A stretch of 63,289 bases of DNA from an uncultured Gammaproteobacteria bacterium (GTDB taxonomy: Bacteria > Patescibacteriota > Microgenomatia > Levybacterales > GWA1-39-11). The translations under genes and the position numbers were made by a program. Under the pieces are notes generated by a model. That model was not told the origin of the DNA, did no database searches, and worked only from the letters and a program-made list of their open reading frames with translations. Where the stretch lies: positions 1-63,289 of the forward strand of contig CAZDED010000009.1 of the NCBI GenBank assembly GCA_964504535.1, written 5' to 3'. Numbering within the stretch: the stretch's first letter is position 1; every line of letters starts with the position of its first letter. This document shows, piece by piece, positions 8,384-62,927 of the stretch.

Positions 8384-8389
8384 ACAGAT

Positions 8390-8605: not shown

Positions 8606-8607
8606 TT

Positions 8608-9012: not shown

Positions 9013-9032
9013 ATCTTTAAGAATACCACAAG

Positions 9033-9053
9033 TTAGAAGCTAGAAGCTAGACA
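9033..9053. repeat. Three in-phase heptamers TTAGAAG-CTAGAAG-CTAGACA
   Basis: Direct reading. The repeat overlaps the uvrC stop codon (9047-9049) and lies 20-40 nt upstream of the 9012 start. The CTAG cores put stop codons in all three frames on both strands. Confidence 0.8.
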
Positions 9054-12104: not shown

Positions 12105-12105
12105 A

Positions 12106-39921: not shown

Positions 39922-40791
39922 TCAATCTATTAAAAAGCTTCGGTAGGTTCTACTTCCATCAAGGTCAAAACTTACCCATAAATGTCCATCGCTACGCGTA
40001 GTAAGGACTTTTCTTAGTGGTCCAATGCCATTAAGACTTACTCCCGTGGTTACATGTTGTGCATATCTACTTGCCATACCACCCTGTGTATCATACATAA
40101 TGTCTCTATCTGAAATGACTATACAATCTACATTAGAGCAATGCAAGAAAATATTTTCATGATAGCCGTTATCGTGACCATGATGTGATGCAACATAAAC
40201 ATTTGTGGAATTAAGATGACTCTGTATTTCTGGATTCTGTAAAAGTTTCTCCCAGGAAGGTGTTTTTTCAAGATCTCCACCAATACAGATTTTTGATCCG
40301 CCATATTCAACAAATACTAATTGACTCAAATGATTTGTGTTGATTTCGTATGAATTGAGATCGCTCCTATTTAGCGAGTATATATATTTATTATACGGTG
40401 GCATATGATAGGGAACCGGCGTGGTATAAGTGTCTTTAAGGTAACAAATATGCCTCAATGCCTCGGTAATTTCGGGCTTAATACTTTTTAATTCGCTTGA
40501 TGAAATATTTTGAGCCAATGAAACGGTTTGAATATGCATTTTTTGTCTAATACTGGGAAGCCCAAAAAAATGATCATGGTCATAATTTGTGATCGTAAGA
40601 TTTCCGAGCACATGCCTTGTTCCATCATGATGGATTAGATTTTGTTTTACTAAAAAATCAATTGGATCATAATTTTCTCCGGAAGCACAATCAACAAGCA
40701 TCCCGTATTCTGGATGACTTCGTGGATAAAAAAAGATGCATTGTGCTTGTCCAACATTGAATATCAAAATCTCTAAATTATTGCTGTTCAT
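39922..40791 (-). CDS. MBL-fold metallo-hydrolase (divergent)
   Basis: 289 aa; ITNYDHDHFFGL (HxHxDH-like) and VASHHGHDNGYH. Confidence 0.65.
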   Translation of the reverse strand: MNSNNLEILIFNVGQAQCIFFYPRSHPEYGMLVDCASGENYDPIDFLVKQNLIHHDGTRHVLGNLTITNYDHDHFFGLPSIRQKMHIQTVSLAQNISSSELKSIKPEITEALRHICYLKDTYTTPVPYHMPPYNKYIYSLNRSDLNSYEINTNHLSQLVFVEYGGSKICIGGDLEKTPSWEKLLQNPEIQSHLNSTNVYVASHHGHDNGYHENIFLHCSNVDCIVISDRDIMYDTQGGMASRYAQHVTTGVSLNGIGPLRKVLTTRSDGHLWVSFDLDGSRTYRSFLID

Positions 40792-49433: not shown

Positions 49434-49907
49434 TTACGTTTCTAGCATTGTTAATATTGCTTCTTTTCTGTCTTTAAGCATGAATCCCATTTTTTTATGT
49501 AATTTCATCGAGTTCGGATTATCGGTATTAATAAGTGCCTCTATTTTTTCAACTTTTTTTTGTTTAGCAATTGAAATTAATTTCTCATAGAGCAATTGCC
49601 CTATGCCTTGGCCCTGAAATTCCGGATCAATTGCAATATGGTTTACATAAATAGAATCTTTAAAGGGAGAGTTTTCATAAGCAAAAAGAAATCCAACAAT
49701 ATTATTCTCAACATAGGCAACCAACGAGAATCCAGAATCCACGTACGCTTTAAAATCTTCTTTTCTCGAAACCAAACATTCCGTTTTTTTCTTGGATGAA
49801 AGATTCTTCCATTTTTTACCTAAATATTGTATTTGAGTCAATTCATCCACTTCATGTACACCCTTATAATCCTCTTGTTGAACGGGCTTGACCTTAATTT
49901 GTTGCAT
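49434..49907 (-). CDS. GNAT-family N-acetyltransferase
   Basis: HIAIDPEFQGQGIGQLLYEKLI is the acetyl-CoA binding motif A. The start is placed at ATG 49907 (MQQIKV...); the track start is 50045. Confidence 0.75.
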   Translation of the reverse strand: MQQIKVKPVQQEDYKGVHEVDELTQIQYLGKKWKNLSSKKKTECLVSRKEDFKAYVDSGFSLVAYVENNIVGFLFAYENSPFKDSIYVNHIAIDPEFQGQGIGQLLYEKLISIAKQKKVEKIEALINTDNPNSMKLHKKMGFMLKDRKEAILTMLET

Positions 49908-49963
49908 AAAGCGATTATACATCAACTCGTTCCGAAACAAGAAATAATTGTTATAATGACTGG

Positions 49964-50713
49964 ATGAACGGAAAGTTTTACGACAAAGTAGCAAGAAAAT
50001 TTGGAAGCTATTCAAGGTCAATTGCAACCCTTGATGAATATTCAACTCAAGATCCTGAGAAAGTGTTTAAGGAAATGTTAATTAAAATAGGCGGAAAAAA
50101 TAAAAATGCTCTTGATATAGGGTGTGCTGACGGTAATTTTACAATAAAGGTATCAAAATATTTTAAAAACATTACGGGAATTGACATATCTAAAGAAATG
50201 TTGAAAGTTGCTCGTAAAAATCAAGAAACGGCAGGAAATCATAATGTAACATTCCTAAAACAGAGTGTTTTTAGGAACAATTTACAGCCTGAATCATTCG
50301 ATATAATTTATAACCGTCGAGGGCCCACAAATTATCCTTCATTTTATTCATTGCTTAAAACAGGTGGTTATTATCTTGAAATCGGAATTGGGGAAAACGA
50401 TTGCAGGAAAATAAAGGAAATTTTTGGAAGAGGCCAAGGTTATAAAAAATGGGGCAGAAGTACTTTACAAAAGGATATAAAAGAGTTAAAAAAAATTGGC
50501 TTTAAGATCGTTATGTCGGAGGACTATTTTTATAATGAATATTACCCTTCTTATAATGAGCTCGACGTTTTTTTACAGGGGGTACCAATTTTTGAAGATT
50601 TTGATTCTTCAAAAGATAAGAAATTTTTACAGCAATATCAAATAAAGTTCCAGGATAAAAAGGGGATTAAATTACCACGTCATAGAATCGTTATTCTTGC
50701 AAAAAAAGTATAA
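49964..50713 (+). CDS. Class I SAM-dependent methyltransferase
   Basis: Motif I: ALDIGCADGNFT. Confidence 0.75.
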   Translation: MNGKFYDKVARKFGSYSRSIATLDEYSTQDPEKVFKEMLIKIGGKNKNALDIGCADGNFTIKVSKYFKNITGIDISKEMLKVARKNQETAGNHNVTFLKQSVFRNNLQPESFDIIYNRRGPTNYPSFYSLLKTGGYYLEIGIGENDCRKIKEIFGRGQGYKKWGRSTLQKDIKELKKIGFKIVMSEDYFYNEYYPSYNELDVFLQGVPIFEDFDSSKDKKFLQQYQIKFQDKKGIKLPRHRIVILAKKV

Positions 50714-50715
50714 AT

Positions 50716-51759
50716 TTATCTATCTTTTCCTCTTAATACAAGCGAAAGAGTTCTTAGCTCTGAATTATTTAACTTATCAAACGGTTTTCCAAGTATATCG
50801 GAGGGGATTCCAAACCCGTCAACAATAGCTCTTTCCCCAACTCTCAAAAGGCGCGCCCTACTGTTTGAACGATCGTCATTTACCTCAATTCTACCAAATT
50901 CGTTGTATTCTCTTGCAGCCTGTTTTAAATCGAAATTTGCGCTTCTTCTTATTACCTTGCGCCTTTCTTTTTTAGTGCGTGTACCTAAATTTTGCTGTTC
51001 AGTAAATTCTGTTAAACCTTCTTTCATACAATTTCTAACAAGCGGGCTTTTATTTGAAGTTAAAAAAAGTTTTCTCAATAAGAAGTCTCTCATATTGGGA
51101 GGCCCTTCCTTAGGGGAAAGACGAATTATAGATGATTCTGTTCTTGGAGGAGGAAGAAAACTGTCTCTTCCTAATTCCATTAGAACATCTATATCAAAGA
51201 ATGATTGAGCAAGGAGTGTTAATTTTCCAAAGCCAAGACTGTCTTCGTTTTGTGCTTGAATTGATTCGGCTAATTTTCTTCCTACAACCATTGTTGCACT
51301 TTCAATATCAAGTTCCGCTATGCGACGCATAAACGGTTCGGTTATGTGATAAGGGATACTGGCAATAATCTGTGTATCATTTTCGTCTTCTTTTGCAACA
51401 AAATCTTGCAATCTAAGTGCAAGAGCATCCCCATAAACCACATGTAAATTTGAATATCGATTTGAAATTTCAGATAAAATAGGTTCATATCTTCTGTCTA
51501 TTTCTATTGCAACAACTTTAGTTGCGTTTTTAGCTAATGCTTCCGTTAATTGTCCGATTCCGGCACCGACTTCAAGAACTTTATTTCCGGGACTTATTGA
51601 ATGGGTTAGCAAATTTATGGCTTTGTCATCAATTAAAAAATGCTGTCCTAGATTTTCATTTGGTACAATGTCTAACGATTCAATACGACCCAGAACTACT
51701 TGTTTCAGCAGCATTGAATTATCCGGCGTCTGTTGGTTTAAGCTTTCTATTCTATTCAT
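50716..51759 (-). CDS. rRNA adenine N6-dimethyltransferase family protein (KsgA/Erm fold) with a C-terminal extension of roughly 90 aa
   Basis: LGQHFLID (QNFL-like), LEVGAGIGQLTE and IIASIPYHITEPF (NIPY-like). At 347 aa it is longer than my recalled 260-290 aa for KsgA/Erm. Confidence 0.75.
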   Translation of the reverse strand: MNRIESLNQQTPDNSMLLKQVVLGRIESLDIVPNENLGQHFLIDDKAINLLTHSISPGNKVLEVGAGIGQLTEALAKNATKVVAIEIDRRYEPILSEISNRYSNLHVVYGDALALRLQDFVAKEDENDTQIIASIPYHITEPFMRRIAELDIESATMVVGRKLAESIQAQNEDSLGFGKLTLLAQSFFDIDVLMELGRDSFLPPPRTESSIIRLSPKEGPPNMRDFLLRKLFLTSNKSPLVRNCMKEGLTEFTEQQNLGTRTKKERRKVIRRSANFDLKQAAREYNEFGRIEVNDDRSNSRARLLRVGERAIVDGFGIPSDILGKPFDKLNNSELRTLSLVLRGKDR

Positions 51760-51904: not shown

Positions 51905-52678
51905 TTAAATTGGTTGAAGATTAATTATGGAATCAGACGCTTCTTCGAGTGCCTTTATCTCATCACTCCATTTTTCATTCATAGCCATCCGATTAAAAAG
52001 TAGATCAAATACCATGTCTAAAATTGGATTATTTTGATGTGTTTTTGAAAAATCCATTATTGATGTTTTATTAAAAGTAAACATTTTGTTTAGAAGATCC
52101 AATTTAATTAAATTACCGTTTTTTAGATAAACAAAAATTTCTCGTCTTGGTTTTCCGTACTCAACATTAACTTGCCATGGAATTTTTCTTTCAAACAGAT
52201 AAAACCATAAGTCTATATCGTGTATCCCCAAATCAAATTTCGGATTGATCGAATAATCTCTTTGTGGTTTCAAACCAAACCGATAGCTTTTAATCTTTTT
52301 AATTTCGTGCGTTTTGATGTTTCTTTTTAAAAACTGGACTATTGGATTATATCTTTCGAGGGTAGATTGATATAAGATTAATTTTCTTTTCTGTGCTAAG
52401 TTTTCAAGTATCTTTGCTTCATTCGATGAAAAACAAAGAGGTTTTTCGCATAGAACATTATAATCATTCATTAACAATTTCTTTACAATTTCATAATGAT
52501 TCTGGATTGGAGTAGAAACAATAACCAAATCAACGGGTTGTCGGTAATCTATAAATTCATCAACATTGCTAAAATATATTCTGTTCATGACCGGATTAAC
52601 GTCCACAATATATTTCCCATTTAATAAACTGTCATAAATTTTCCCCATCTTTCCGAATCCGATAATTGCAATATCCAT
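51905..52678 (-). CDS. Gfo/Idh/MocA-family NAD(P)-dependent oxidoreductase
   Basis: MDIAIIGFGKMGKIY Rossmann N-terminus and the LCEKPL motif. Confidence 0.7.
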   Translation of the reverse strand: MDIAIIGFGKMGKIYDSLLNGKYIVDVNPVMNRIYFSNVDEFIDYRQPVDLVIVSTPIQNHYEIVKKLLMNDYNVLCEKPLCFSSNEAKILENLAQKRKLILYQSTLERYNPIVQFLKRNIKTHEIKKIKSYRFGLKPQRDYSINPKFDLGIHDIDLWFYLFERKIPWQVNVEYGKPRREIFVYLKNGNLIKLDLLNKMFTFNKTSIMDFSKTHQNNPILDMVFDLLFNRMAMNEKWSDEIKALEEASDSIINLQPI

Positions 52679-52679
52679 A

Positions 52680-53735
52680 TCATTTCTCTACAAAATACAA
52701 AAGCTTTTTTGATAATTCTTGCCAAGATAAGTCTTTTGCCAACTTTATATTGCTTTTTTTTGCAATATATTTGAGCTTTAATGCGCTTTTTATTCCCTCC
52801 TTCCAGGAAAATACATTACCGTCAACCATTCGGCCTGTCTTTCCATCCTTTAGGAGCCATTCCATTCTTCCTTTACCCATTACAATTGGTGATCCAATTG
52901 CTAAATATTCACTTATAACTATCGGGCTACAGTCAACTTCAACCGGAAAAACAAATACGTCCGCTATATTCATATAGTCAGGGACTTTTTCTATAGGAAT
53001 CATGCCGCATTTAATGATGTTTTTTCTATTTGGAATTTCCTTTAAAAGAGGGCCATCTCCAACTACGAAAAACACTTGCCTATCGTCTATTGCTTCGCTA
53101 ATTACTTTTAAATTATCGTACCATTTTCCAACTTTCCCACAATACATTATTATCTCTTTTCCCATTAAGTCAACGTTGTATTTTTTCTCAAAATACTTTT
53201 TTAACAATGCTATTTTCGCAGATGAATAAGGATAGAAAAGAGATCTGTCATATCCATTCGGAATAATTATAGTATCTTTCGTTTTTAGACCCCAATTTTT
53301 CATTGCTTCGAGAATTACCGGTGACTGTGCAATAACCTTAGATGCTCTTTGCAAAATATCCAAATAGCTATATCGTAGAAGGTAATACTGTTGATTTACG
53401 CCAAATTCCTTTAAATACATTTCATCATACCAGTCTATACAATCAAATATAATTGGAGTTTTAATTTCCTTGCCGATAATTAGGTTGCTAAGCGGATTGT
53501 CAATCATCAAATAATCAAAACTGCGATTAGAAAGAAACTTTTTTAATCTTTCTCGCTCCTTCGTAACAACATCAATATCTTTCAAAATTTTATGTTTAAA
53601 GAAATCAAATTCGATTTCTTTTGAATACTTTAATAAATATTGCTCCCTTTGCGGGAATCCTACTAGATATGATTTAGCGAAGTGTTGAAGGCTTTGGGTG
53701 TATGTTTTATCTCCAATTTTTAAAACTTTTTTCAT
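52680..53735 (-). CDS. GT-B glycosyltransferase (family 4 / group 1)
   Basis: 351 aa; C-terminal domain ...FFVVGDGPLLKEI...VFVFPVEVDCSPIVISEYLAIGSPIVM (E-x7-E-type region). Confidence 0.7.
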   Translation of the reverse strand: MKKVLKIGDKTYTQSLQHFAKSYLVGFPQREQYLLKYSKEIEFDFFKHKILKDIDVVTKERERLKKFLSNRSFDYLMIDNPLSNLIIGKEIKTPIIFDCIDWYDEMYLKEFGVNQQYYLLRYSYLDILQRASKVIAQSPVILEAMKNWGLKTKDTIIIPNGYDRSLFYPYSSAKIALLKKYFEKKYNVDLMGKEIIMYCGKVGKWYDNLKVISEAIDDRQVFFVVGDGPLLKEIPNRKNIIKCGMIPIEKVPDYMNIADVFVFPVEVDCSPIVISEYLAIGSPIVMGKGRMEWLLKDGKTGRMVDGNVFSWKEGIKSALKLKYIAKKSNIKLAKDLSWQELSKKLLYFVEK

Positions 53736-54727
53736 ATAAAAAATTCTTCAAGAGCCTTTCTTATTGTTGAAATTTCATTCATGGTTAAATTCCATCTGCA
53801 TGGAATTGAAACAATTGAAGAAGTGATATCTTCATACTCATCCCTTACCGAAACGGGAAGCACATCATTATCGTAATAAACTTTAGTTTCAATTCCTTTA
53901 TTTTTCATATGTTTTATAAATTTGTCTCTATTATTCAAAATAATATTAAAAGTTGAAAATATGTGCCTGCTTCCTTCCTGTTCTTCCAAAAAAGGTTGAC
54001 TACCGGGAATTAGGGGAATAAGTTCTTTTGCAATATCTCTTTGAATATCCGTTCTCTTGTCATAATCTTTAAGCTCGTCTAAAAGAAACTCTGCCTTAAC
54101 TTCATCAAATCGAAGATTTAGCGCTACATTTTCGGTTAGTTTTCCGCCGTTTCTACCTGATTCAATAAATACTTTTAATTTTTCGTAATAATCTTTATTA
54201 TCGGTAACAACGGCTCCTCCGTGGCCACAAGTGTGGAGCGTTTTGGTCGGATAAAAACTATAACAACCCAATAATCCAAATGTTCCCACTTTTTTCCTGT
54301 TTAATTCCGCACCAAACGATTGGCATGCATCTTCGATAAGAACACTTTTATTAATTGTTTTAACTAATTCATTTGGTTGACCGTATAGATGTGTTATTGT
54401 ATAAAGTTCATTTTTCGTTGTTGCAAGATGCTTTAAGAAAAGCATGCGTTTGAAATTTATTTCATAATTTAACAAACGAGCGGGTTGGTAAGTTGCCGGA
54501 AAAGTATACGGATCAACGGAAAGCTTGCGATATTTATCCCTCAATACCCAATAGCATGCAAGAAGCGCTGAGGTTCCGCTGTTTGTTAATATCACATATT
54601 TTACACCAAGATATTCTTTTATCTTTTCCTCGAGCTCTTTTATTTTTATTCCATCAATCCAATCTCCGCTATTGTATCTCGTACTTTTATGTTGAGATGC
54701 AAGTTTATAAAGAGGGATTTTAATCAT
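53732..54727 (-). CDS. DegT/DnrJ/EryC1/StrS-family PLP-dependent sugar aminotransferase
   Basis: VILTNSGTSALL, EDACQSFGA and SFYPTKTLHTCGHGGAVVT (PLP lysine context). Confidence 0.8.
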   Translation of the reverse strand: MIKIPLYKLASQHKSTRYNSGDWIDGIKIKELEEKIKEYLGVKYVILTNSGTSALLACYWVLRDKYRKLSVDPYTFPATYQPARLLNYEINFKRMLFLKHLATTKNELYTITHLYGQPNELVKTINKSVLIEDACQSFGAELNRKKVGTFGLLGCYSFYPTKTLHTCGHGGAVVTDNKDYYEKLKVFIESGRNGGKLTENVALNLRFDEVKAEFLLDELKDYDKRTDIQRDIAKELIPLIPGSQPFLEEQEGSRHIFSTFNIILNNRDKFIKHMKNKGIETKVYYDNDVLPVSVRDEYEDITSSIVSIPCRWNLTMNEISTIRKALEEFFI

Positions 54728-54736
54728 ATAACGTAC

Positions 54737-55456
54737 CTACATTATTTCTGAAGCAATTTTTAATGCTTTAGGAGTCAATGGAGAATAATTGTTTATTATG
54801 AAAGCTTCTCCATATTCGCCATTGATGGAAGCGCCCCTAATACTTGCTACGGATCTTAATCTTCTTTCAATCCAATCTTGGTTCATACTATGCTCATCTT
54901 TTACTGATGTGTAAAAATTAAACGCTTCAATTTTTCGATTTATATTTTCTTTCGTAAGTAAGGATACAACCGAATAATCAAATGGTGTGGTCATCTCCAA
55001 ATCAACTTCTCCTTGCAAGAGTAGGGGAGCTCTTGATTTTGTAATGCCCCCCACAACGGCACAGCCGCTTTGAAAATTTGCTTCCGGTACTATCCTTCCC
55101 AGCGTTCTGTGGTCAATATGTTTATCTTGAGAATAGTGAGTGAAAATTACGTCTGGATTAATTTTTCTAATTTCTTTAATTGTTTGCTGTAAAAGAACGC
55201 CCTCATTTTTTCCGACCTCCATGTCATGAAAGGGAAGAAAATTAATTTTATATCCAAGGACATCGGAACTTTTATTTGCTTCTATTAGGGAACGCTTTTT
55301 TCTTTTTGCTTGTGTTTCTTTATAGAAGTAGCCTTGACAATTTTGTGTGTAAAATGTAACGAATACTTCATGCCCCTTTTTGATCAGCTTATCTATAGTT
55401 GCTCCACACATAATAATTTCATCGTCCGGATGCGCAACGAGTATTAATATTTTCAT
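54737..55456 (-). CDS. LmbE/PIG-L-family N-acetylglucosaminyl deacetylase
   Basis: MKILILVAHPDDEII and HIDH metal-binding motifs. Confidence 0.8.
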   Translation of the reverse strand: MKILILVAHPDDEIIMCGATIDKLIKKGHEVFVTFYTQNCQGYFYKETQAKRKKRSLIEANKSSDVLGYKINFLPFHDMEVGKNEGVLLQQTIKEIRKINPDVIFTHYSQDKHIDHRTLGRIVPEANFQSGCAVVGGITKSRAPLLLQGEVDLEMTTPFDYSVVSLLTKENINRKIEAFNFYTSVKDEHSMNQDWIERRLRSVASIRGASINGEYGEAFIINNYSPLTPKALKIASEIM

Positions 55457-56148
55457 ATATTTTCTTTAATCTCTGCGATGTTTTTCTCTCTTTCCTTACA
55501 ATTGGCACATTCATGGCATGAGGATATCTTCCCGTCGTTGTATTGGGCATTCCAACACGAAACCGTTAAATCAAGCATTCCTGCATCGGAAAGTCTTTTT
55601 AACAAGGCTTTTTTCGTGAGAGATCTTATTGGGAGGAACACCTCCATAGGCCGCAAGAAGGATTTTGATAGGATGTCTTCAACTCCTTTGTGGTGAAAAT
55701 AATCGTTATCTCCAAATACAAAATTGTCGTCTAACATATAACCTATTGCTATACCGTCCCCATCGATTTGCTCGGCATATATTCCTGCAATTACCATAAA
55801 AAGAGTATTTCTTCCCGGAACCCAAGCATCGGAATCGTCTTTGGACTCTTCACCAAGTAGTTTACTTCTGGTTAATTTCTTAAGAAGGTCTGTTTCGATA
55901 ACTTGCGTTGGTTGAAATCCAAGTTGGACCGGTACGTTTTCTACCAGTTGTCTTTCTGCCGTAGCAGAAGATTGTCCGTAATCAATAAAAAGAGGGTACA
56001 CATCTTTTCCTTGTTCTTGAAGAATTAATCCGGCTACCGTACTATCAACACCACCCGAATACATTAAAACGACTCTTCCGGTATTTTCCCTCTGAAGACC
56101 TCTCAGCAGATCTTCGTTCATTTTTGTTTTTATAGGTTCTAATTCCAT
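55453..56148 (-). CDS. queC: QueC-family PP-loop ATPase (7-cyano-7-deazaguanine synthase-like, divergent middle region)
   Basis: VLMYSGGVDST PP-loop, FIDYGQ, VPGRNTLF and the 4-Cys zinc motif SCWNAQ...SSCHECANCKER. Confidence 0.75.
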   Translation of the reverse strand: MELEPIKTKMNEDLLRGLQRENTGRVVLMYSGGVDSTVAGLILQEQGKDVYPLFIDYGQSSATAERQLVENVPVQLGFQPTQVIETDLLKKLTRSKLLGEESKDDSDAWVPGRNTLFMVIAGIYAEQIDGDGIAIGYMLDDNFVFGDNDYFHHKGVEDILSKSFLRPMEVFLPIRSLTKKALLKRLSDAGMLDLTVSCWNAQYNDGKISSCHECANCKEREKNIAEIKENI

Positions 56149-56151
56149 TTA

Positions 56152-57168
56152 TTAATTTAGTTGTATTAATGAAAAAAACTTTTCAAGATTTAATTTCTTT
56201 ATTCTCTCAGATGATAAATCATTATAAATACTATAACGTAAATGATGCATTTTAACATAACCTTGCATTTCATTCAAAGCTTTTAATACTATTGGTCTGT
56301 TTAGTCCTTCTAAAACATATTTAATACCAACAGAATCCATGAATGATTTTATTTCTATAATGTCCTGTCCCTGAATAAATGCTGTTAACAAAACGCTAAA
56401 AGCTATCATTTCTCCATGCAAAAATTTTTTTAATTTATTTTCCATAGCATATGTAAAGAAGTGTTCCCCTCCCTCTTCAGGCCTACTATTTCCATAAAAA
56501 TTACATAGCTGGACTTCCATAGCGAGAAACTGCACAAGGTAAATTAACCCCTTTTTTGAAACTTTTCTAATTTCACTTGATTCCGTGAGTAATCCTCTAA
56601 ATATTGATTCTGCCATTAAGGCTACGCTTTCGGAATATTTTTCATCTTCTGCTGCCTTTTTTCTATTGTTTGCATATTTCCAATCAAACAACCCGGTATA
56701 TATTGAAAGAACGTCACCGCAACCGCTTAGATGAAATCTTTTTGGACTTTTTTTAAGTAAATTATAATCTAGCAAAACCAAATCTGCTTTTTTTGATGGG
56801 AAATAGGTGACACACCCCTTATCTCTTAATCCGGTGCAATCAACTAGAAAAGCATCTGTTGAAATAATAGTTGGAACACATATTATTTCAAGGTTCCAAT
56901 TATAGGCGATAAAACGGCCCAAATCACATACTCTTCCACCACCCAATGCATAAATAACCTTTCCTACATGTTTTTCTTTTACTAATTTTTTAGCATATTC
57001 TTTTTCTGCGGATTTAATATAAATTGTTTGAACAATATTTAGATTTTTTATTATATTTTTGCTTTTCTTTAATGATGCAGGGCTTGTTATTAGAATTACG
57101 GGACGGGAATCAAATAGTGTATCTATACTTCCCCATTTTATTTTCGGTAGATTTGAAATATATCTCAT
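56152..57168 (-). CDS. Glycerol-1-phosphate dehydrogenase (AraM/EgsA)-like enzyme of the DHQS/Fe-ADH superfamily
   Basis: YALGGGRVCDLGRFIA (GGGxxxD), VPTIISTDAF and SGCGDVLSIYTGLFDWKYA (GxGDxxxxxxxxxDW). Confidence 0.6.
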   Translation of the reverse strand: MRYISNLPKIKWGSIDTLFDSRPVILITSPASLKKSKNIIKNLNIVQTIYIKSAEKEYAKKLVKEKHVGKVIYALGGGRVCDLGRFIAYNWNLEIICVPTIISTDAFLVDCTGLRDKGCVTYFPSKKADLVLLDYNLLKKSPKRFHLSGCGDVLSIYTGLFDWKYANNRKKAAEDEKYSESVALMAESIFRGLLTESSEIRKVSKKGLIYLVQFLAMEVQLCNFYGNSRPEEGGEHFFTYAMENKLKKFLHGEMIAFSVLLTAFIQGQDIIEIKSFMDSVGIKYVLEGLNRPIVLKALNEMQGYVKMHHLRYSIYNDLSSERIKKLNLEKFFSLIQLN

Positions 57169-57170
57169 GA

Positions 57171-58703
57171 TTAATTAGTAGATAGAATAAAAGGATGGAA
57201 TAGGTCCATGTTTCTGAAAGCCAAATGAAAATATAATTCGGATGCAAATTTATCTATAACTTTTGATGGGTCTGGATATCTTGAAGGGTCGAGTGAATGT
57301 TGAAAATTTGCAATCATTTGTTGCAAGGTTTCTCTTTTAGATTTTTCTCCTTCATTTGTGCGTTTTAAGAAAACCTGCAGGTTGGCATTCATAGTTTCAT
57401 TACCATCTGCAAGCTCAGCTTCTAATTCACCCAATAAAGGCAACATATCGTTAAAACCTGCAGCAAATTCAGGATGAGTAAATGCCTGATACCCATAAAA
57501 GCTAAGCAACTCAGGGGGAACGTCCAATAGCCTTCCTTTTCTCTTAAACTCATGATAAAGAGGAGTATTCGGTTGCATTTCAAGATTGGCAATAATGTAT
57601 CCACTTGAGCCCAGATCCTTAAGAAGCTTTACTTCTTCGCGAATGTTTTTTCTGTTCTGCCAGTCCAATCCGACTATGTATGTTGAAACAACATTAATTC
57701 CAGCATCTTGCAATCGTGCATTAACAGCTTTCAAGTCAACTCCTTCATTTTTTTTATATCCTTTAATTAAAGATTCGACTCCAATATTTACGGTACTGAG
57801 CCTTAACGCACCTTTTGTTAACTCATCTATATCATACTTATCAATTACCTTTGAAGATGTTGTGCTGACCAGTTCACATTGAAATGGCAGATCCCTACAA
57901 AGTCTAAGAACGTCTTTCCACAATTTCACATTGCCCATCCCTTGAGGTTCTGCAATACTTACGGTAAAGGTCTCACTTTCGGGAGCAATCGTGTCATGTG
58001 CAGAAATTATTGCATCTTTAATCTCGTCAGCGGCAAATGGCGCCCTATATTCCTGTCCGTACTGTGCTGTTGAAGGGCAGAAATCACACCCATACATACA
58101 TCCCAAACTACTGACCAAAAGACCATAACTTCCTCTCTTTGTAATTCCGTTAAAACGGGTTTCGGTGTCTGAACGAATTGTTGCGACTTTTAATGGATCA
58201 TTGGTAGGTTGGCCAATTATTTTTCTTAAATCGGTAACCTGATCTCCTCTTAATCTATAGTCAGATAAATTTACCGACTCTTCAAGAAGAGCGCCAACAG
58301 AAGAGGCAATTACCTTAACCTCCGGATGTTTATCTCTTACGAATTGTGCAATTTCTCTAAATGTACTGTATCCGCTTAAATATGTTGAAATAACAATATG
58401 TCCATACCTACCGGTATCAAGCTCTTCCCTTGCTCTTTCAAGAGTTATTGGTTCTGGAATTACCGTATTTGGAAGGTTTATATTTGCGCTCATCCATTCA
58501 CCGGGAGCATTTTGTGGATACCAATCAAATGAAAACGTGTCTTCTCTTCCTTGAGTTTTGGTTTGTTGAATATAATCGGCAAGAAATTGAGAATCATAAT
58601 ATTTATCAAATCCTTTTCTTTGTAATCCTTCTAATTTTTCAGTGGGATTTGTTGTGTTGTATGACGGATCTTGAGCTATAGTAAATAGTACTTCTTTACT
58701 CAT
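57171..58703 (-). CDS. Radical SAM enzyme with a roughly 190-aa N-terminal Rossmann-like (B12-binding-type) domain
   Basis: CxxxCxxC cluster (LGCMYGCDFCPS) after an N-terminal domain (HIVISTYLSGYSTFREIAQFVRDKHPEVKVIASS). The class-B assignment rests on architecture only. Confidence 0.75.
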   Translation of the reverse strand: MSKEVLFTIAQDPSYNTTNPTEKLEGLQRKGFDKYYDSQFLADYIQQTKTQGREDTFSFDWYPQNAPGEWMSANINLPNTVIPEPITLERAREELDTGRYGHIVISTYLSGYSTFREIAQFVRDKHPEVKVIASSVGALLEESVNLSDYRLRGDQVTDLRKIIGQPTNDPLKVATIRSDTETRFNGITKRGSYGLLVSSLGCMYGCDFCPSTAQYGQEYRAPFAADEIKDAIISAHDTIAPESETFTVSIAEPQGMGNVKLWKDVLRLCRDLPFQCELVSTTSSKVIDKYDIDELTKGALRLSTVNIGVESLIKGYKKNEGVDLKAVNARLQDAGINVVSTYIVGLDWQNRKNIREEVKLLKDLGSSGYIIANLEMQPNTPLYHEFKRKGRLLDVPPELLSFYGYQAFTHPEFAAGFNDMLPLLGELEAELADGNETMNANLQVFLKRTNEGEKSKRETLQQMIANFQHSLDPSRYPDPSKVIDKFASELYFHLAFRNMDLFHPFILSTN

Positions 58704-59697
58704 AATTAGTTTTAATACCTCGTACTAAGCTTTTATTTAAAGAGTTTATGAAATTATTAACGGAATCGGGTAGGTGTTCTAGATTATATCCACCCTCAAA
58801 AACCACACAACTTGGAATATTAAGTCCTCCAATTTTATAACCCAAATAGCCATAATCATCTGCGGTAAGTCCTGCTAACGGTGTTCTTCCAGGTGGATGA
58901 TCTTCCTCATGTCCATCGAATCCCGCGCTTACTACTAATACATCTGGATTATAACTATCTATAGTTTTAATTGCTCTTCCAAATTTTTCTTTATATCTAT
59001 CTGTAGAAACACCGATATCAACAGGGATATTAACAATTAAGCCTTTTCCCAGTCCCTCACCAATCTCTTCTGGAAAACCTGTGAATGGAAATGCTATGCT
59101 AGGGTCTGCATGGACAGAAACAAACAGCGCCTCTCCAGAATTAAAAAAAATATCCTGTGTCCCATCTCCATGGTGAATATCAAAATCTAATACTGCAACT
59201 TTAGCACCAGCATTTCGTAGGTTACGAGTAGCTAATGCTGCATTATTAATAAAACAAAAACCATGATAAAAATCATGCCCCGCGTGATGTCCAGGGGGAC
59301 GCGAGAGTGAAAAAACCAATTTAGTTTTCTTTTGAATTAGTAGCTCTGAAGAATGAATACTATTACTTGCAGCTAGAACTGCCTGATCATAGGTACCCTT
59401 TAATATTGGTGTTGAATACGCGGTGTCACTACAAAACTTAGTAAACGCTTCATCCCCCACTTTAAGTAACTCGCTGTATCTTTGAAGCAACTCAATCATT
59501 TCAGGTGAGTGGGTCTCTTTTATTAAGGGGTGTTCATATATATTCGGTGCTTCAACTTTTATGTTAAGCCCGCTCCCAAGAAGAGCATTTTTTACCAATT
59601 CTACCCTTTCAGCAATTTCACATGGATCATCTTTACGCGTTTTGTGTTGCGCATGTTTTTCATCGTAAACTAAAAATACATCATGCTCTATTTCCAT
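58696..59697 (-). CDS. Histone-deacetylase-family amidohydrolase (acetylpolyamine/acetoin-utilisation type)
   Basis: RPPGHHAG, DFDIHHGDGTQDIF and SAGFDGHEEDHP. Confidence 0.85.
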   Translation of the reverse strand: MEIEHDVFLVYDEKHAQHKTRKDDPCEIAERVELVKNALLGSGLNIKVEAPNIYEHPLIKETHSPEMIELLQRYSELLKVGDEAFTKFCSDTAYSTPILKGTYDQAVLAASNSIHSSELLIQKKTKLVFSLSRPPGHHAGHDFYHGFCFINNAALATRNLRNAGAKVAVLDFDIHHGDGTQDIFFNSGEALFVSVHADPSIAFPFTGFPEEIGEGLGKGLIVNIPVDIGVSTDRYKEKFGRAIKTIDSYNPDVLVVSAGFDGHEEDHPPGRTPLAGLTADDYGYLGYKIGGLNIPSCVVFEGGYNLEHLPDSVNNFINSLNKSLVRGIKTNYE

Positions 59698-60887
59698 AAA
59701 TCTGTATTAACTTGTCCTGTTTCAAATAACTTGCCCATTAATTCATTTGATGGAATTGCTCGAGAAGCATTTTCTAGAAAAGTCCTAATATCATCCAAAT
59801 ACATACTTGTTTGTAATCGGGAATCTCGTTGTCGAATTGTCACAGAATCATTTTTTACACCCTCTTCATCTGCTGTAAATACATATGGCACACCGATACC
59901 ATCTGCCTTTCTATATCTACTACCAATAGAGCCCGTTTCTAGAATTGGTGTTCGAATACCGTATTCTTTTAATAGTTCACTTACGAGTATGGACATATTG
60001 TGCAACTCAGGTGTTTTCTTAAGGGGAAAAACCATTCCCTGCACGGGAGCCAATCTTTCGGGTAAATGTAGAACGACTCTATCTCCAATTTTCTCCAATG
60101 CTTGTCCCAATGCTATATAGAAAGGTCTGTCGCTTGAAAAAGAAATCTCAAAAACCTCGGGATATTTACCGTTCACTTCCAGTTTTGTTCCTGTCGCAAG
60201 ACTATGTCTTTTAAAATCGTAGGATGAGCGGTATTGAATTCCGAGCAATTCCATTTCATTTCCGTCCTCGTCCGGTACATATAAACCAAATGCTTTGTTG
60301 GCATAAAATGGTTTATCAGATTCAATCTTTTCTCTAAAATTCATACTACCTTCTTTAATACCAACACTATTCATTAATACATAAGATAAATGCTGTAGGT
60401 AATCGACTGTAGCGGCAACATCTACATCTTTTGTCTGCATAAATATATGTCCTTCGTGTCCTGTATATTGTCTTGTTCTCGTTTGCCATTCAGTTTGTCT
60501 ATCATTAGGCAATACGATTCCCGACTGAAAAACTCTAAATGGTAAATTTCCCCTATAATATTCGAGCAGTCTTCTAAAAAGAGGGTATATGGTTGTAGCG
60601 AGTTCACCTCTACCCATCAGCGCTTGACCGTCTGAAGTTTGTGTTTGGAACATCTCGTCATTAAATTTCTGTAAATGTCCACTTGCTTCCCAGGCTTTTC
60701 GGGGATAAAGGACCGGTGTCTCAATCTCATCAAAGCCTTCATCGATAAAAACTTCCCTGAATTGTTGTTCCATATTGGTTTTAAGGGCTTTACCCATAGG
60801 ACCATATGTCATAAAACCAGCCACGCCGTATGGACTGTGCTCCGGCCCCCATAAAAATCCGTTTGAAACTAAATGTTCTTTTAACAT
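59688..60887 (-). CDS. Class II glycyl-tRNA-synthetase-like paralogue (catalytic core plus anticodon-binding-like domain), divergent motif 2
   Basis: GlyRS-type N-terminus (GFLWGPEHSPYGVAGFMTYGPMGKALKTNMEQQF), motif-3-like PEVFEISFSSDRPFY, and a class IIa C-terminal domain (APVQGMVFPL...GSIGSRYRKADGIGVPYVFTAD...VTIRQRDS). Confidence 0.75.
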   Translation of the reverse strand: MLKEHLVSNGFLWGPEHSPYGVAGFMTYGPMGKALKTNMEQQFREVFIDEGFDEIETPVLYPRKAWEASGHLQKFNDEMFQTQTSDGQALMGRGELATTIYPLFRRLLEYYRGNLPFRVFQSGIVLPNDRQTEWQTRTRQYTGHEGHIFMQTKDVDVAATVDYLQHLSYVLMNSVGIKEGSMNFREKIESDKPFYANKAFGLYVPDEDGNEMELLGIQYRSSYDFKRHSLATGTKLEVNGKYPEVFEISFSSDRPFYIALGQALEKIGDRVVLHLPERLAPVQGMVFPLKKTPELHNMSILVSELLKEYGIRTPILETGSIGSRYRKADGIGVPYVFTADEEGVKNDSVTIRQRDSRLQTSMYLDDIRTFLENASRAIPSNELMGKLFETGQVNTDLWK

Positions 60888-60890
60888 AAT

Positions 60891-61634
60891 CTATATTCCT
60901 CTTTTGTCTCCCCAAAGCAATACATGCAAACGAGGGGTCAATCGCCATCCTCGCTCCTTTACTCCTTCAACAACTTCTAGTGCATGTGTTTTAATATCAT
61001 CATCTGTTGTCCCTTCAGGCATGATAATAATTTTTGACGGATCAAGACTGCAATCTTCAACCAATTGAGAAATTTCATCCAGATCTCTTTCGCTTTTTAC
61101 AACAAATTTAAAAGTTGTATTGGGTAGCTCATTAAACTGAGATAGCACTTCCGGTTTATATCTCCTGTTAAGCGCATTACCTGAATTTTCCAGCTTAGGA
61201 GAAACATTAAATTGACATTTATCTGCCAGTGTTTGAGTAGGAGGAATAGTTCCGTTTGTTTCAATTTCAATATCCCAGCTCGGTATCAAATCGACAAATT
61301 TACTAATTCTTTCTTGTTGTATCAATGGTTCACCACCTGTTATGACTAATCTTTTTACAGGGTATCTCTCGATTTCTGAAAGTGTTTTTTGGTAATCCCA
61401 GTTCTCGGCATCTTGCCAAAATTCTTTGGACTTTCTATCCCAGGTATATTTCGTATCGCACCAACCACATTGTAAATTACAAAAATTAAGGCGAAGAAAA
61501 ACTGCCGGCTTTCCTATGCTTTGACCCTCGCCTTGGATTGTAAAAAACACACCATCTCCGGATACCTTAAACTCATCAGCATTCATTCTCATCGATTCAC
61601 GCTCTGATATTGTTGGTGTATATATTTCTGTCAT
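60891..61634 (-). CDS. queE: 7-carboxy-7-deazaguanine synthase (radical SAM)
   Basis: FTIQGEGQSIGKPAVFLRLNFCNLQCGWCDTKYTW. The start at ATG 61634 forms an ATGA overlap with the queD stop; the track start is 61691. Confidence 0.85.
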   Translation of the reverse strand: MTEIYTPTISERESMRMNADEFKVSGDGVFFTIQGEGQSIGKPAVFLRLNFCNLQCGWCDTKYTWDRKSKEFWQDAENWDYQKTLSEIERYPVKRLVITGGEPLIQQERISKFVDLIPSWDIEIETNGTIPPTQTLADKCQFNVSPKLENSGNALNRRYKPEVLSQFNELPNTTFKFVVKSERDLDEISQLVEDCSLDPSKIIIMPEGTTDDDIKTHALEVVEGVKERGWRLTPRLHVLLWGDKRGI

Positions 61635-61990
61635 TCTTTGCTTTCTTTGCCTGGTCCTTGAAAGGCAACAAAACTGCTTGGAGTTTCCCAAAGCTTAATT
61701 TCGTACAGTGGCATATCTCCTTCTAACTGCTCCCATATCCACATAGCTATATTTTCTGCTGTCGGTTGCTTAATAATTTTATTAATAAAAGCGTGGTCAA
61801 GTTTTTGGAGCACCTTTTTATTAACAGAATTTTTTATTTCGGTAAAATCCATGACCATTCCGTTTTTTTGGACAACGCCTTTTAAAATAACTTGTAGTTT
61901 ATAGGTATGCCCATGTAAATTAGCGCAAGGACCATTATAGTTACGTAACCTGTGGGCAGAATCGAAAGTAAACTGTTTAGCAATAAACAT
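61631..61990 (-). CDS. queD: 6-carboxy-5,6,7,8-tetrahydropterin synthase
   Basis: 119 aa; FTFDSAHRL...CANLHGHTYKLQV (PTPS/QueD signature). Confidence 0.88.
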   Translation of the reverse strand: MFIAKQFTFDSAHRLRNYNGPCANLHGHTYKLQVILKGVVQKNGMVMDFTEIKNSVNKKVLQKLDHAFINKIIKQPTAENIAMWIWEQLEGDMPLYEIKLWETPSSFVAFQGPGKESKE

Positions 61991-61992
61991 AA

Positions 61993-62778
61993 TTAATTGT
62001 GTTTAACATCGTCAATACTTGTATATCGAGCGTAGGCATTATGGTTATGTATTGATTCGAAACTTTCACACTCTACAGTGAACGAAAGAATGTTTTTGTT
62101 CTTTTTTATCGAAAGAGCAGTATCTCTAACCGCATCTTCAACAAATTTAGGATTTTCATAGGATTTTTCGGTTACATATTTTTCATCAGGCCTTTTTAGT
62201 ACAGGGTATATCTCACAACTACCGTTTTTTTCAATCGTTTTTATTAATTCATCTATCAATAAGTCCCCTTTTAGAAGTGCGTCTACCGTTATAATCGATC
62301 TTTGGTTGTGAGCATTAAATTTACTTATTGCTTTACTGCACGGGCACAAAAGCATAACAGGAACTTTCACTATTATCCTTTGTTCCGAATCTCCGGAATT
62401 AACCCTTGAATATATTTTGCATTCATAATCAACGAAACTACTTTTTCTGGAAACAGGAGCCTCTTTTTTCAGGAAATATATAAAAGAAATTTCAAGATAA
62501 GCATTGTCTGCCTGTAATTCCTTTTTTGCTTCACTCGCTATTGATTTCAATTTTTCAAACGTTAGAATATTTTCCCGATTCCTAAAAAGTATTTCTACAA
62601 ACCTACTCATATGATGTCCTTTTAATGAATGGCGTAAGTCTGCAAAGAAATTAACAGATGCCGTAACCTGTTGGGTATCTTTTTTGTGGGGGATTAACAA
62701 AGGAAGCGATATCTTGGTAATACCAACCCTATCTAGTCGAAGTCCTCTTTTATCTTTTAGTTTTTGTATGTCTTTCAT
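61993..62778 (-). CDS. folE2: GTP cyclohydrolase I type 2 (FolE2/MptA family)
   Basis: 261 aa; GHHMSRF, LLCPCSK and NHNAYA motifs. Confidence 0.85.
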   Translation of the reverse strand: MKDIQKLKDKRGLRLDRVGITKISLPLLIPHKKDTQQVTASVNFFADLRHSLKGHHMSRFVEILFRNRENILTFEKLKSIASEAKKELQADNAYLEISFIYFLKKEAPVSRKSSFVDYECKIYSRVNSGDSEQRIIVKVPVMLLCPCSKAISKFNAHNQRSIITVDALLKGDLLIDELIKTIEKNGSCEIYPVLKRPDEKYVTEKSYENPKFVEDAVRDTALSIKKNKNILSFTVECESFESIHNHNAYARYTSIDDVKHN

Positions 62779-62781
62779 GCT

Positions 62782-62808
62782 ATAAAAAAACGAGCGTACC
62801 CGCTCGTT
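62782..62808 (-). terminator. Intrinsic terminator/attenuator inside the folE2 leader (AACGAGCG-ggta-CGCTCGTT followed by TTTTT)
   Basis: The minus strand reads AGAACGAGCGGGTACGCTCGTTTTTTTATAGCATG. The 8-bp stem and U-tract end 6 nt before the folE2 ATG. Confidence 0.6.
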
Positions 62809-62899
62809 CTATATAACTATATATCAATATTGGTAGGTATAACCTAAATGCGGGTCGCCCTTTCCACTATTGTTTGCAACTTGAATCTAATTGAACTCG

Positions 62900-62927
62900 A
62901 TTATACCATAATAATTAGAAAAAGCAA
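62900..62927 (-). promoter_or_regulatory. Strong sigma-70-type promoter for the 12-gene operon (TTGCTT, 16-nt spacer, TGgTATAAT)
   Basis: The minus strand reads TTGCTTTTTCTAATTATTATGGTATAAT. The predicted leader is about 115 nt. Confidence 0.55.

Follow-up and report, generated by a model that had tools for sequence, protein, structure and literature searches.

A recurrent gene cluster of Patescibacteria combines 7-deazaguanine synthesis with amino-sugar tailoring and may encode a natural product

What might a bacterium of the candidate phyla radiation (CPR) make with an operon that joins the synthesis of 7-deazaguanine to the tailoring of an amino sugar? The question is raised by contig CAZDED010000009.1 (assembly GCA_964504535.1), a stretch of 63,289 nucleotides that was analyzed as a whole and is referred to here as the window. 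Its minus strand carries 12 intact co-directional open reading frames (ORFs) between positions 51905 and 62778, among them genes for FolE2, QueD, QueE, and a QueC homolog together with a glycosyltransferase, deacetylases, a sugar aminotransferase, a second radical S-adenosylmethionine (SAM) enzyme, and a paralog of glycyl-tRNA synthetase (GlyRS). Patescibacteria have tiny genomes, are thought to be host-dependent, and are hardly known as makers of natural products; biosynthetic gene clusters (BGCs) are seldom described from CPR genomes (PMC7298704). We think it rather likely that this locus is such a cluster, in which 7-deazaguanine derived from 7-carboxy-7-deazaguanine (CDG) or preQ0 is coupled with a modified amino sugar and, in this genome, with glycine, yielding a compound of the antibiotic type accompanied by genes for self-protection. 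By analogy, its logic would combine those of huimycin, aminoglycosides, and mycothiol.

Recurrence and variability of the cluster

The genomic contexts of approximately 25 contigs were fetched and compared by BLAST. The cluster recurs in approximately 20 independent contigs from metagenomes and metagenome-assembled genomes (MAGs), nearly all of them from Patescibacteria/Microgenomates. Because it recurs in many divergent genomes, a chance juxtaposition of the que and sugar genes can be rejected; the co-occurrence first noticed in this one stretch by an earlier reading of the letters alone (hereafter, the sequence-only reading) extends to all these loci. What is conserved, at 40-97% identity, is a scaffold that consists of a radical SAM enzyme of approximately 510 amino acids (aa), a dehydrogenase resembling glycerol-1-phosphate dehydrogenase (G1PDH), the QueC-like protein, and the LmbE-DegT-GT4-Gfo block, with gene order and orientation shuffled. 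The extras are interchangeable: the GlyRS paralog, a deacetylase resembling histone deacetylases (HDAC), an aminoglycoside phosphotransferase (APH) kinase, a SPASM radical SAM enzyme, a carbamoyltransferase, and a major facilitator superfamily (MFS) transporter. For example, L020-L022 lack the GlyRS-like gene and carry instead a SPASM radical SAM enzyme, an APH, a second GT4 or an O-carbamoyltransferase, and an MFS gene. The HDAC-like gene is found in six loci, and either APH or GNAT stands in its place in L008, L023, L024, and L025; its family had been named correctly, but it is an optional rather than a fixed member. SAM methyltransferases and GNATs also vary among loci: homologs of the window's methyltransferase (41-88% identity) occur in L010, L020, L023, and L025, and those of its GNAT in L004, L007, L013, L023, and L025.

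Variation extends to the supply of the deazaguanine itself. Sometimes a type I FolE stands in the place of the FolE2/QueD/QueE genes, and in L001 and L007 these genes are replaced by Vut_1/YhhQ transporters. One or two YhhQ-family genes flank the cluster there (8876-9894 and 19234-19887 in L001; 3746-4435 in L007), which suggests a switch from precursor synthesis to salvage. Since YhhQ is a preQ0 transporter (PMC5372724), the replacement of the de novo CDG genes by transporters points to deazaguanine as an importable building block. A FolE fragment of 108 aa is retained in L001.

The absence of the transglycosylases TGT and DpdA has been used as the criterion that separates secondary-metabolite pathways from the deazapurine pathways of nucleic acids (bioRxiv 10.64898/2026.04.15.718813). 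In agreement with the sequence-only reading, TGT, DpdA, QueF, QueA, and QueG were all absent from the window, where ORFs of at least approximately 290 aa were profiled, and no TGT-family domain was present in the 13 related loci that had been annotated with Pfam. Neither the window nor the related loci therefore hold the gene set of queuosine or archaeosine synthesis (TGT with QueF/QueA/QueG(H) or ArcS), and DpdA with DpdB/DpdC, which would mark a Dpd system, is likewise missing. What is present is the clustered set of FolE2, QueD, and QueE, with or without QueC, by which 7-deazapurine secondary-metabolite BGCs are recognized. Tailoring enzymes accompanied by a transporter or regulator, another mark of BGCs, are seen through the MFS and YhhQ genes of related loci rather than in the window's own cluster. 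In addition, resistance-type genes are consistently linked: a KsgA/Erm-like methyltransferase gene is found in 12 of the 13 complete loci (those long enough to judge), alongside GNAT and APH genes. Taken together, a conserved scaffold, interchangeable genes for tailoring and protection, and an import alternative resemble a family of natural-product clusters rather than an operon for tRNA modification. The preference of the sequence-only reading for a small-molecule product over tRNA modification is supported by the same variable tailoring and resistance-type genes.

The cluster is rare. A scan of species representatives recovered three loci among 185,579 genomes, so the evidence on its taxonomic range comes mostly from metagenome contigs. 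Doubtful bin labels occur among these: Candidatus Methanoperedens for L007 (642-3128) and L013, which have genes for an archaeal-style HMG-CoA synthase and thiolase as neighbors, and Pedobacter/Niabella for P0026/P0144 and P0176. Such odd labels reflect either mis-binned CPR contigs or horizontal transfer beyond the CPR.

Table 1. Positions of the cluster genes and associated features in the window, with the profile or motif evidence for each
Feature	Position	Strand	Evidence
Promoter and 5' leader	62779..62927	-	Extended -10 TGGTATAAT at ~62900-62908
FolE2 GTP cyclohydrolase (GTP to dihydroneopterin triphosphate)	61993..62778	-	PF02649, E=2.6e-82; NCBIfam equivalog, 264 bits (cutoff 215)
QueD (6-carboxytetrahydropterin synthase)	61631..61990	-	TIGR03367, 108 bits (cutoff 89)
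QueE-like radical SAM enzyme (CDG synthase)	60891..61634	-	Top NCBIfam matches are five QueE models, 83-101 bits, below equivalog cutoffs; CxxxCxxC
GlyRS paralog, class II core and HGTP anticodon-binding domain	59688..60887	-	GlyRS model, 227 bits, below cutoff of 312
HDAC/acetylpolyamine-amidohydrolase-like deacetylase	58696..59697	-	PF00850 (Hist_deacetyl), E=1.6e-64
Radical SAM enzyme of ~510 aa with N-terminal Rossmann-like (B12-domain-like) module; signature enzyme of the family	57171..58703	-	
G1PDH/glycerol-dehydrogenase-like NAD(P) dehydrogenase	56152..57168	-	NCBIfam G1PDH, 131 bits (cutoff 413); PDB G1PDH/GldA, E=1e-22
Divergent QueC homolog (PP-loop ATPase)	55453..56148	-	PF06508, E=1.5e-32; TIGR00364, 100.5 bits (cutoff 150.3)
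LmbE/PIG-L N-acetylglucosaminide deacetylase	54737..55456	-	PF02585, E=4.5e-23; top NCBIfam match, BshB1
DegT/DnrJ/EryC1 sugar aminotransferase	53732..54727	-	PF01041, E=1.5e-45
GT4-family glycosyltransferase	52680..53735	-	PF13692, PF00534, PF13439
Short Gfo/Idh/MocA oxidoreductase	51905..52678	-	PF01408; NCBIfam UDP-GlcNAc 3-dehydrogenase, E=1.2e-19; top PDB match, 7bvj
KsgA/Erm-family RNA adenine-N6 methyltransferase	50716..51759	-	PF00398, E=2.9e-36
Class I SAM-dependent methyltransferase	49964..50713	+	Methyltransf_25/11/31
GNAT N-acetyltransferase, likely start ATG 49907	49434..49907	-	PF00583, E=3.6e-18

Deazaguanine synthesis and the fate of CDG

Pfam and NCBIfam profiles upheld every gene-family label given to the 12 ORFs by the sequence-only reading, with several scores below equivalog cutoffs (Table 1). 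FolE2, QueD, and QueE would convert GTP to CDG, a chemistry established for these families. The earlier description of a complete deazaguanine/preQ0 pathway is uncertain at the QueC step. Alignments of the family and with QueC structures in the PDB show that the window's homolog keeps the SGGxDS PP-loop and the C-terminal zinc Cys cluster, whereas the canonical active-site loop DxSGYPDCR is replaced by DDNFVFGDNDYFHH in 12 of 12 amino-sugar-type loci; in L027 and L029, which carry clusters of a different type (see below), the loop is canonical-like. The protein thus has neither the equivalog-level score nor the loop by which QueC is recognized, and its sequence is compatible with a role as preQ0 synthase or, instead, as a synthetase that forms amide bonds with CDG. 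QueC homologs of the RoyL type form CDG amides (peptidyl 7-deazapurines; roseomycin A), which makes an amide-forming role plausible for this divergent QueC as well.

A GlyRS paralog that keeps the glycine pocket

The GlyRS-like protein belongs to a clade of approximately 41 proteins that share 41-100% identity and are separated by a large score gap from true GlyRS, at 27%. In an alignment of 29 sequences, residues R93/E95, E145, E247, S249, and R254 do not vary, and they correspond to RPE, E296, E522, and S524 of the human enzyme; the motif 2 and 3 arginines and the residues of the glycine pocket (RPE, E145, and E247-x-S249) are conserved. An AlphaFold2 (AF2) model with a predicted local distance difference test score (pLDDT) of 90 matches GlyRS with a template modeling (TM) score of 0.83. 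Insertion domain 1, between motifs 1 and 2, is missing, whereas the anticodon-binding domain is kept. In GlyRS-tRNA structures, this insertion domain contacts the acceptor stem of the tRNA. A resistant or duplicate GlyRS is ruled out by the low identity, the absent insertion domain, and the sub-cutoff score, and the paralog has neither the equivalog score nor the full architecture of a genuine GlyRS. From its sequence and model, we infer a glycine-adenylating ligase, the acceptor of which would be something other than the normal acceptor end of tRNA. A precedent is MshC, an aminoacyl-tRNA synthetase (aaRS) paralog that ligates an amino acid to a sugar amine.

Sugar enzymes and the AprD4-like radical SAM protein

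Four consecutive genes encode what looks like a route to an amino sugar. The Gfo and DegT pair resembles GnnA/GnnB, which make UDP-GlcNAc3N. Glycosylation by a GT4 enzyme followed by deacetylation by LmbE is a pair of steps used in the synthesis of paromamine, mycothiol, and bacillithiol. Matches of the LmbE protein in the PDB are LmbE-related proteins, chitobiose deacetylase, and BshB, while the GT4 enzyme has no close solved relative, its PDB match being only marginal. The solved structures closest to the HDAC-like protein are HDAC6 and bacterial acetylpolyamine amidohydrolase; the protein is most like the latter group, whose members are N-deacetylases of small molecules.

The signature enzyme of the family is the radical SAM protein of approximately 510 aa, in which C202, C206, and C209 are invariant. 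It has no relative in the PDB by sequence, and its nearest outgroup families show only a faint likeness to HpnJ/BchE in NCBIfam. Its AF2 model (pLDDT, 92.7) gave AprD4 as the top Foldseek match (E=2e-12; TM score, 0.52-0.59) at a sequence identity of only 12-13%, with B12-dependent class B methylases close behind in the ranking. The family is rare: an exhaustive HMMER search of 1.84 billion proteins gave only approximately five representatives at the level of 50% identity. It consists of 74 proteins at 90% clustering, all with Patescibacteria labels except for two probable mis-binnings and many unlabeled metagenome entries. AprD4 is a radical SAM 1,2-diol dehydratase that acts on paromamine with the partner reductase AprD3 (PMC5461906). 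Across the loci, the G1PDH-like gene nearly always adjoins the radical SAM or the QueC-like gene; since AprD4 pairs with a reductase and a dehydrogenase gene adjoins here, a dehydratase/reductase pair is a reasonable but weak assignment. The G1PDH-like protein is not a sugar-phosphate cyclase such as 2-deoxy-scyllo-inosose synthase (DOIS) or 2-epi-5-epi-valiolone synthase (EEVS): its aroB score is 16.7 bits, far below that for G1PDH (Table 1).

A KsgA/Erm-like methyltransferase shared with other deazaguanine clusters

Downstream of the Gfo gene, after a gap of 145 bp with a TATAAT box, lies the KsgA/Erm-like gene, the position of which varies among loci. In alignments, the enzyme has SAM motif I, motif IV, (N/S)(I/L)PY, and motif VIII, FxPxP, and the long forms carry a Lys/Arg-rich C-terminal insertion. 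It scores 150.7 bits against the RsmA model (cutoff 171) and 108.5 bits against the Erm equivalog model (cutoff 212). Nine of the 10 related copies score 101-151 bits against RsmA; the one that reaches the cutoff, at 171.9 bits, is copy 1 of L014, a locus where a KsgA-like methyltransferase stands beside a divergent one, and judging by its sequence copy 1 is probably a true KsgA. A plain housekeeping KsgA, though conceivable, is not supported for the family, given that 10 of the 11 copies score below the RsmA cutoff, that L014 has two copies, and that the position of the gene varies.

The wider methyltransferase family comprises more than 120 proteins at an identity of at least 39%, and those with taxonomic labels are mostly from Microgenomates. 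Three more distant members on long contigs each adjoin a different deazaguanine cluster. In L027 (1-11032) and L029 (1260-11023), it consists of FolE2-QueD-QueE-QueC, a protein of approximately 290 aa without an assigned function, an O-carbamoyltransferase, a serine hydroxymethyltransferase (SHMT), and methyltransferases; in L028 (10001-20092), which lies beside prophage-like genes, it consists of FolE-QueD-QueE-QueC (with a QueC of 376 aa), two APH, a nucleotide-sugar transferase, DegT, and an FAD oxidase. The methyltransferase subfamily is thus a common partner of several CPR deazaguanine clusters that differ from each other. By analogy with the erm genes that accompany macrolide clusters, the simplest reading would be target-site immunity to a family of ribosome-binding deazaguanine compounds, although the enzyme may instead N-methylate a purine-like product or carry out genuine RNA modification.

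The protein of approximately 290 aa belongs to a family without a Pfam match, with members at 26-50% identity in L020 (9120-10004), L021 (14708-15580), L027 (5421-6299), and L029 (3886-4749). Found in GlyRS-less clusters and in those of the SHMT/carbamoyltransferase type, it may be another shared biosynthetic enzyme.

A possible pathway and its counterparts in known systems

How could these enzymes work together? The steps that follow CDG formation, as well as the product, its target, and several of the enzyme roles, are inferred. Gfo and DegT would turn UDP-GlcNAc into a 3-amino sugar nucleotide in the manner of GnnA/GnnB, and the GT4 enzyme would move the sugar onto either the deazaguanine, as HuiG does in huimycin synthesis, or a polyol phosphate, as in mycothiol synthesis. 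LmbE would take off the N-acetyl group, and the AprD4-like enzyme with the G1PDH-like dehydrogenase could remodel a diol of the sugar, for example by dehydration and subsequent keto-reduction. The divergent QueC would produce a nitrile or, like RoyL, an amide link from the CDG carboxylate, whereas the GlyRS paralog would adenylate glycine and pass it to the sugar amine, much as MshC does with cysteine. The SAM methyltransferase might decorate the product; GNAT, the HDAC-like enzyme, and, in other loci, APH could add and remove protective acetyl or phosphoryl groups or provide immunity. Finally, the KsgA/Erm-like enzyme would methylate the producer's ribosome for protection; if so, the product would be expected to act on ribosomes. 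The genes agree equally well with two modes of assembly: a huimycin-like N-glycoside of the base with aminoglycoside-like tailoring, and a mycothiol-like polyol-phosphate glycoside capped by a CDG amide.

In gene content, the clusters for huimycin and dapiramicin (Kutzneria and Streptomyces) are closest. Huimycin synthesis involves preQ0, a methyltransferase, and a GlcNAc transferase of the Glyco_transf_4 type; both clusters have the CDG/preQ0 core, a SAM methyltransferase, and a transferase of this type in common with the CPR cluster, and they, too, have neither TGT nor DpdA. The CPR cluster adds LmbE, Gfo/DegT, the AprD4-like enzyme with its dehydrogenase, the GlyRS paralog, the KsgA/Erm-like methyltransferase, and GNAT/HDAC/APH; it has no LuxR regulator, and its hosts are Patescibacteria rather than Actinomycetota. 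The window's GT4 is like HuiG at the family level. With the roseomycin A cluster, which encodes the QueC-like amide synthetase RoyL, the likeness lies in the divergent QueC among the CDG genes of the CPR cluster, which could couple the CDG carboxylate to an amine rather than produce the nitrile. Here, however, the ATP-grasp, TauD, and desaturase genes of the roseomycin cluster are missing, and amino-acid activation would be the task of the aaRS paralog. A 2026 survey of approximately 2 million genomes placed 7-deazapurine clusters mainly in Actinomycetota, described no similar cluster, and mentioned no CPR, aaRS-like, or LmbE components. Our full-text literature searches gave no paper on a cluster of this kind, in keeping with the sequence-only reading, which knew of no described pathway that combines these genes.

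With the clusters for 2-deoxystreptamine aminoglycosides (neamine/paromamine, and apramycin with AprD4/AprD3), the CPR cluster has in common a GT4 GlcNAc transferase with an LmbE-type deacetylase, a dehydrogenase with a DegT-type transaminase, a radical SAM enzyme for which AprD4 is the nearest solved structure, beside a dehydrogenase, APH, an aminoglycoside acetyltransferase-like GNAT, and an rRNA methyltransferase. On the other hand, 2-deoxy-scyllo-inosose synthase is missing, the only member of the dehydroquinate synthase superfamily being the G1PDH/GldA-like protein; the aglycone is presumably deazaguanine; and the rRNA methyltransferase belongs with KsgA/Erm instead of FmrO/Kam. The mycothiol and bacillithiol pathways (MshA-D and BshA-C) follow the same logic of GT4, LmbE, an aaRS-paralog ligase that acts on the freed amine, and GNAT. 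In contrast to theirs, the ligase here is derived from GlyRS and keeps a glycine pocket rather than being a CysRS-derived, cysteine-specific enzyme that yields a thiol, and those pathways have no counterparts to the deazaguanine genes, the radical SAM enzyme, Gfo/DegT, or the rRNA methyltransferase. In antibiotics of the puromycin (pur) and blasticidin/gougerotin type, a sugar hydroxyl is oxidized, transaminated, and aminoacylated, N-acetylation and deacetylation provide self-protection, and the ribosome is the target. To these the CPR cluster would be alike in concept; base, sugar (a GT4-added hexosamine, not a ribonucleotide), and ligase type all differ.

Operon structure, leader RNA, and genomic setting

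The ORF listing of the window placed all 12 genes exactly where the sequence-only reading had them. The 11 junctions, from 5' to 3', measure +2, -4, +3, -10, -8, +2, +3, -4, +9, -4, and +1 nt, if QueE starts at ATG 61634, which matches homologs of 247 aa, and not at the upstream TTG 61691; from this likely start, the gene overlaps the stop codon of QueD by 4 nt. The range given earlier, from a 10-nt overlap to a 9-nt gap, was correct, but the junctions at which genes either overlap by 4-10 nt or lie no more than 2 nt apart number eight rather than seven. Catalytic motifs are readable throughout (CxxxCxxC in both radical SAM proteins, SGGxDS, AHPDDE, GHHA, EGGY, EKP, and the class II motifs), and all the cluster enzymes look intact, without signs of pseudogenes. 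A consensus scan found no excess of promoter or terminator matches within the operon over shuffled sequences; since such internal sites are at shuffle level, a single transcript is neither proven nor contradicted, and one transcript for the 12 genes is plausible. The unit does not end with them: three more genes downstream of Gfo (49434-51759), for the KsgA/Erm-like methyltransferase, the SAM methyltransferase, and GNAT, all recur with the cluster in other genomes, so that the boundary proposed earlier had to be moved.

The leader upstream of FolE2 is structured (fold z = -4.1). A terminator-like hairpin (62788-62805) lies directly 5' of the FolE2 ATG, and between it and the promoter is a hairpin of approximately 69 nt (62810-62879, minus strand) with the core CAAUAG-N4-AAGGGCGAYC. 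The motif CAATAGNNNNAAGGGCGAYC is kept upstream of FolE2 in L023 (5495-5564), L011 (165-232), L024 (7931-7998), and L014 (7705-7773). Among the window and these four loci, which represent three independent lineages, compensatory changes are seen in four of the 18 predicted hairpin pairs. Searches of the leaders of the window and L024 gave no credible Rfam family at either gathering or permissive thresholds, and a covariance model built from the five leaders recovered only those five among 25 loci. The hairpin is a candidate for a new cis-regulatory RNA, an attenuator or a riboswitch, drawn from few sequences in three lineages.

In its first 32 kb, the window carries genes with housekeeping functions (UvrABC, enolase, PGM, PGI, Dus, and tRNAs). 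The order SBP_bac_5-UvrC-transglutaminase-like-UvrA (7031-14994) is syntenic, at 32-60% amino-acid identity, with a contig from a Candidatus Daviesbacteria MAG (L029, 14144-21023), which helps to place the host among CPR bacteria of the Microgenomates type. At tRNA-Glu (33122), the character of the genes changes. A gene for a large serine recombinase overlaps the tRNA gene with its 3' end, and the region up to 48873 also contains genes for a VirD4/TraD-like ATPase, a LexA-like repressor, a complete type I restriction-modification (R-M) system (HsdS/M/R), and an FtsK-gamma protein; the cluster follows. GC content is approximately 35% in this part versus 39.0% upstream, and the cluster-bearing segment is probably a genomic island. 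The sequence-only reading went further and saw an apparent conjugative element. The recombinase beside a tRNA gene, the VirD4/TraD-like ATPase, the R-M system, and the lower GC content are indeed there; however, profile searches of the window found neither relaxase nor VirB4, and no att repeats delimit the island within the window, so that "conjugative" is not established. Elsewhere, the cluster is found in ordinary chromosomal contexts, for example beside ftsZ/ftsA (L020) or genes for ribosomal proteins (L001). Four ORFs of the window (289-415 aa; 343-2819, 29240-30379, and 39922-40791) have no Pfam family at E<=1e-4 and are typical CPR "dark" proteins.

Alternative explanations

Would the same genes serve equally well to make something other than an antibiotic? 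The product could be a cofactor, a protectant, or a surface- or lipid-anchored deazaguanine glycoconjugate assembled by mycothiol/bacillithiol-type logic, with the KsgA-like gene being a linked gene of ribosome biogenesis. The parallel with the mycothiol family is five for five: an Ino1-like supply of polyol phosphate, MshA (GT4), MshB (LmbE), MshC (aaRS paralog), and MshD (GNAT). Moreover, LmbE has its best match in BshB1 of bacillithiol synthesis, the G1PDH-like enzyme is similar to genuine G1P dehydrogenases, the methyltransferase has all KsgA motifs and scores nearest to RsmA, and the window's cluster has no exporter. We nevertheless consider this explanation unlikely, though worth taking seriously, in light of the patchy and rare distribution (three hits among the species representatives), the low-GC island setting beside a recombinase, a VirD4-like gene, and an R-M system, the interchangeability of the APH, GNAT, HDAC, carbamoyltransferase, and MFS accessories, and the second, more KsgA-like copy that L014 holds beside its divergent one. 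More improbable is a hypermodification of tRNA or rRNA, in which deazaguanine, installed by a TGT with its gene elsewhere or in some new way, would be glycosylated, deacetylated, aminated, and glycylated in situ, and in which the KsgA-like enzyme and the GlyRS paralog would act on RNA. The absence of TGT, DpdA, QueF, QueA, and QueG from the window and the 13 annotated loci argues against it, as do the great variability of the tailoring sets, to which aminoglycoside-type kinases, a carbamoyltransferase, and MFS belong, the sugar-nucleotide-level Gfo/DegT pair and AprD4-like enzyme, which point to small-molecule substrates, and a GlyRS paralog that L020-L022 can do without. Still, the product would resemble mannosyl-, galactosyl-, and glutamyl-queuosine, and there are known parallels: GluQRS is an aaRS paralog that aminoacylates queuosine, and the human Q-mannosyltransferase is of the GT4 type. 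The KsgA/Erm-like enzyme and the GlyRS paralog both come from RNA-binding families and have a basic C-terminal insertion and a retained HGTP domain, respectively, and transporters of the YhhQ type normally serve queuosine salvage for tRNA. A bolder version dispenses with TGT altogether: with both enzymes acting on RNA, CPR clusters would put a glycosylated, glycylated 7-deazaguanine on rRNA or tRNA, or elaborate it there, by what would be a new way to hypermodify nucleic acids. The methyltransferase subfamily would then be the hallmark of a whole group of systems, to which the SHMT/carbamoyltransferase and APH/DAO variants of L027-L029 would belong. To this we would give slightly less credence still. 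As for DNA, modification by deazaguanine derivatives is known from phages and genomic islands, and a Dpd-like or anti-restriction system that protects the DNA of a mobile element would suit an island of low GC content that also holds a serine recombinase, a VirD4-like ATPase, and a type I R-M system; however, with a DpdA/TGT-family transglycosylase in no locus, ordinary chromosomal contexts elsewhere, and sugar and aminoacyl tailoring that is unprecedented for DNA deazaguanines, we regard it as very improbable.

The natural-product reading, which we prefer, has to accommodate several observations that weigh against it. The product is predicted from the genes, and the roles of the radical SAM enzyme, given its modest structural match to AprD4, and of the G1PDH-like enzyme are weakly supported. 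The window's cluster has neither exporter nor regulator, with MFS genes flanking the cluster in L003, L004, and L021. If YhhQ imports preQ0, the retention of the QueC homolog in salvage-type loci is unexplained. A tgt gene could be located elsewhere in these genomes, and the anticodon-binding domain kept in the GlyRS paralog may reflect a tRNA-linked role. The methyltransferase resembles KsgA more closely than it does Erm, and its identities follow the pattern of FolE2/QueD/QueE, not that of the tailoring genes; instead of conferring immunity, it might be specific to a lineage and modify RNA, or be an N-methylase of small molecules.

Implications

If the natural-product reading is true, the cluster would define the first family of nucleoside/aminoglycoside-like natural products from CPR bacteria. 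It would also bring new enzymology, namely, a GlyRS paralog that ligates glycine, a QueC of divergent sequence, and a radical SAM enzyme that is rare and AprD4-like; the KsgA/Erm-like methyltransferase would become a candidate for a new resistance determinant. The methyltransferase is, moreover, a ready genomic marker for related deazaguanine clusters. For the biology of Patescibacteria, the finding would suggest that a chemical weapon or signal has a part in the interactions between these episymbionts and their hosts.

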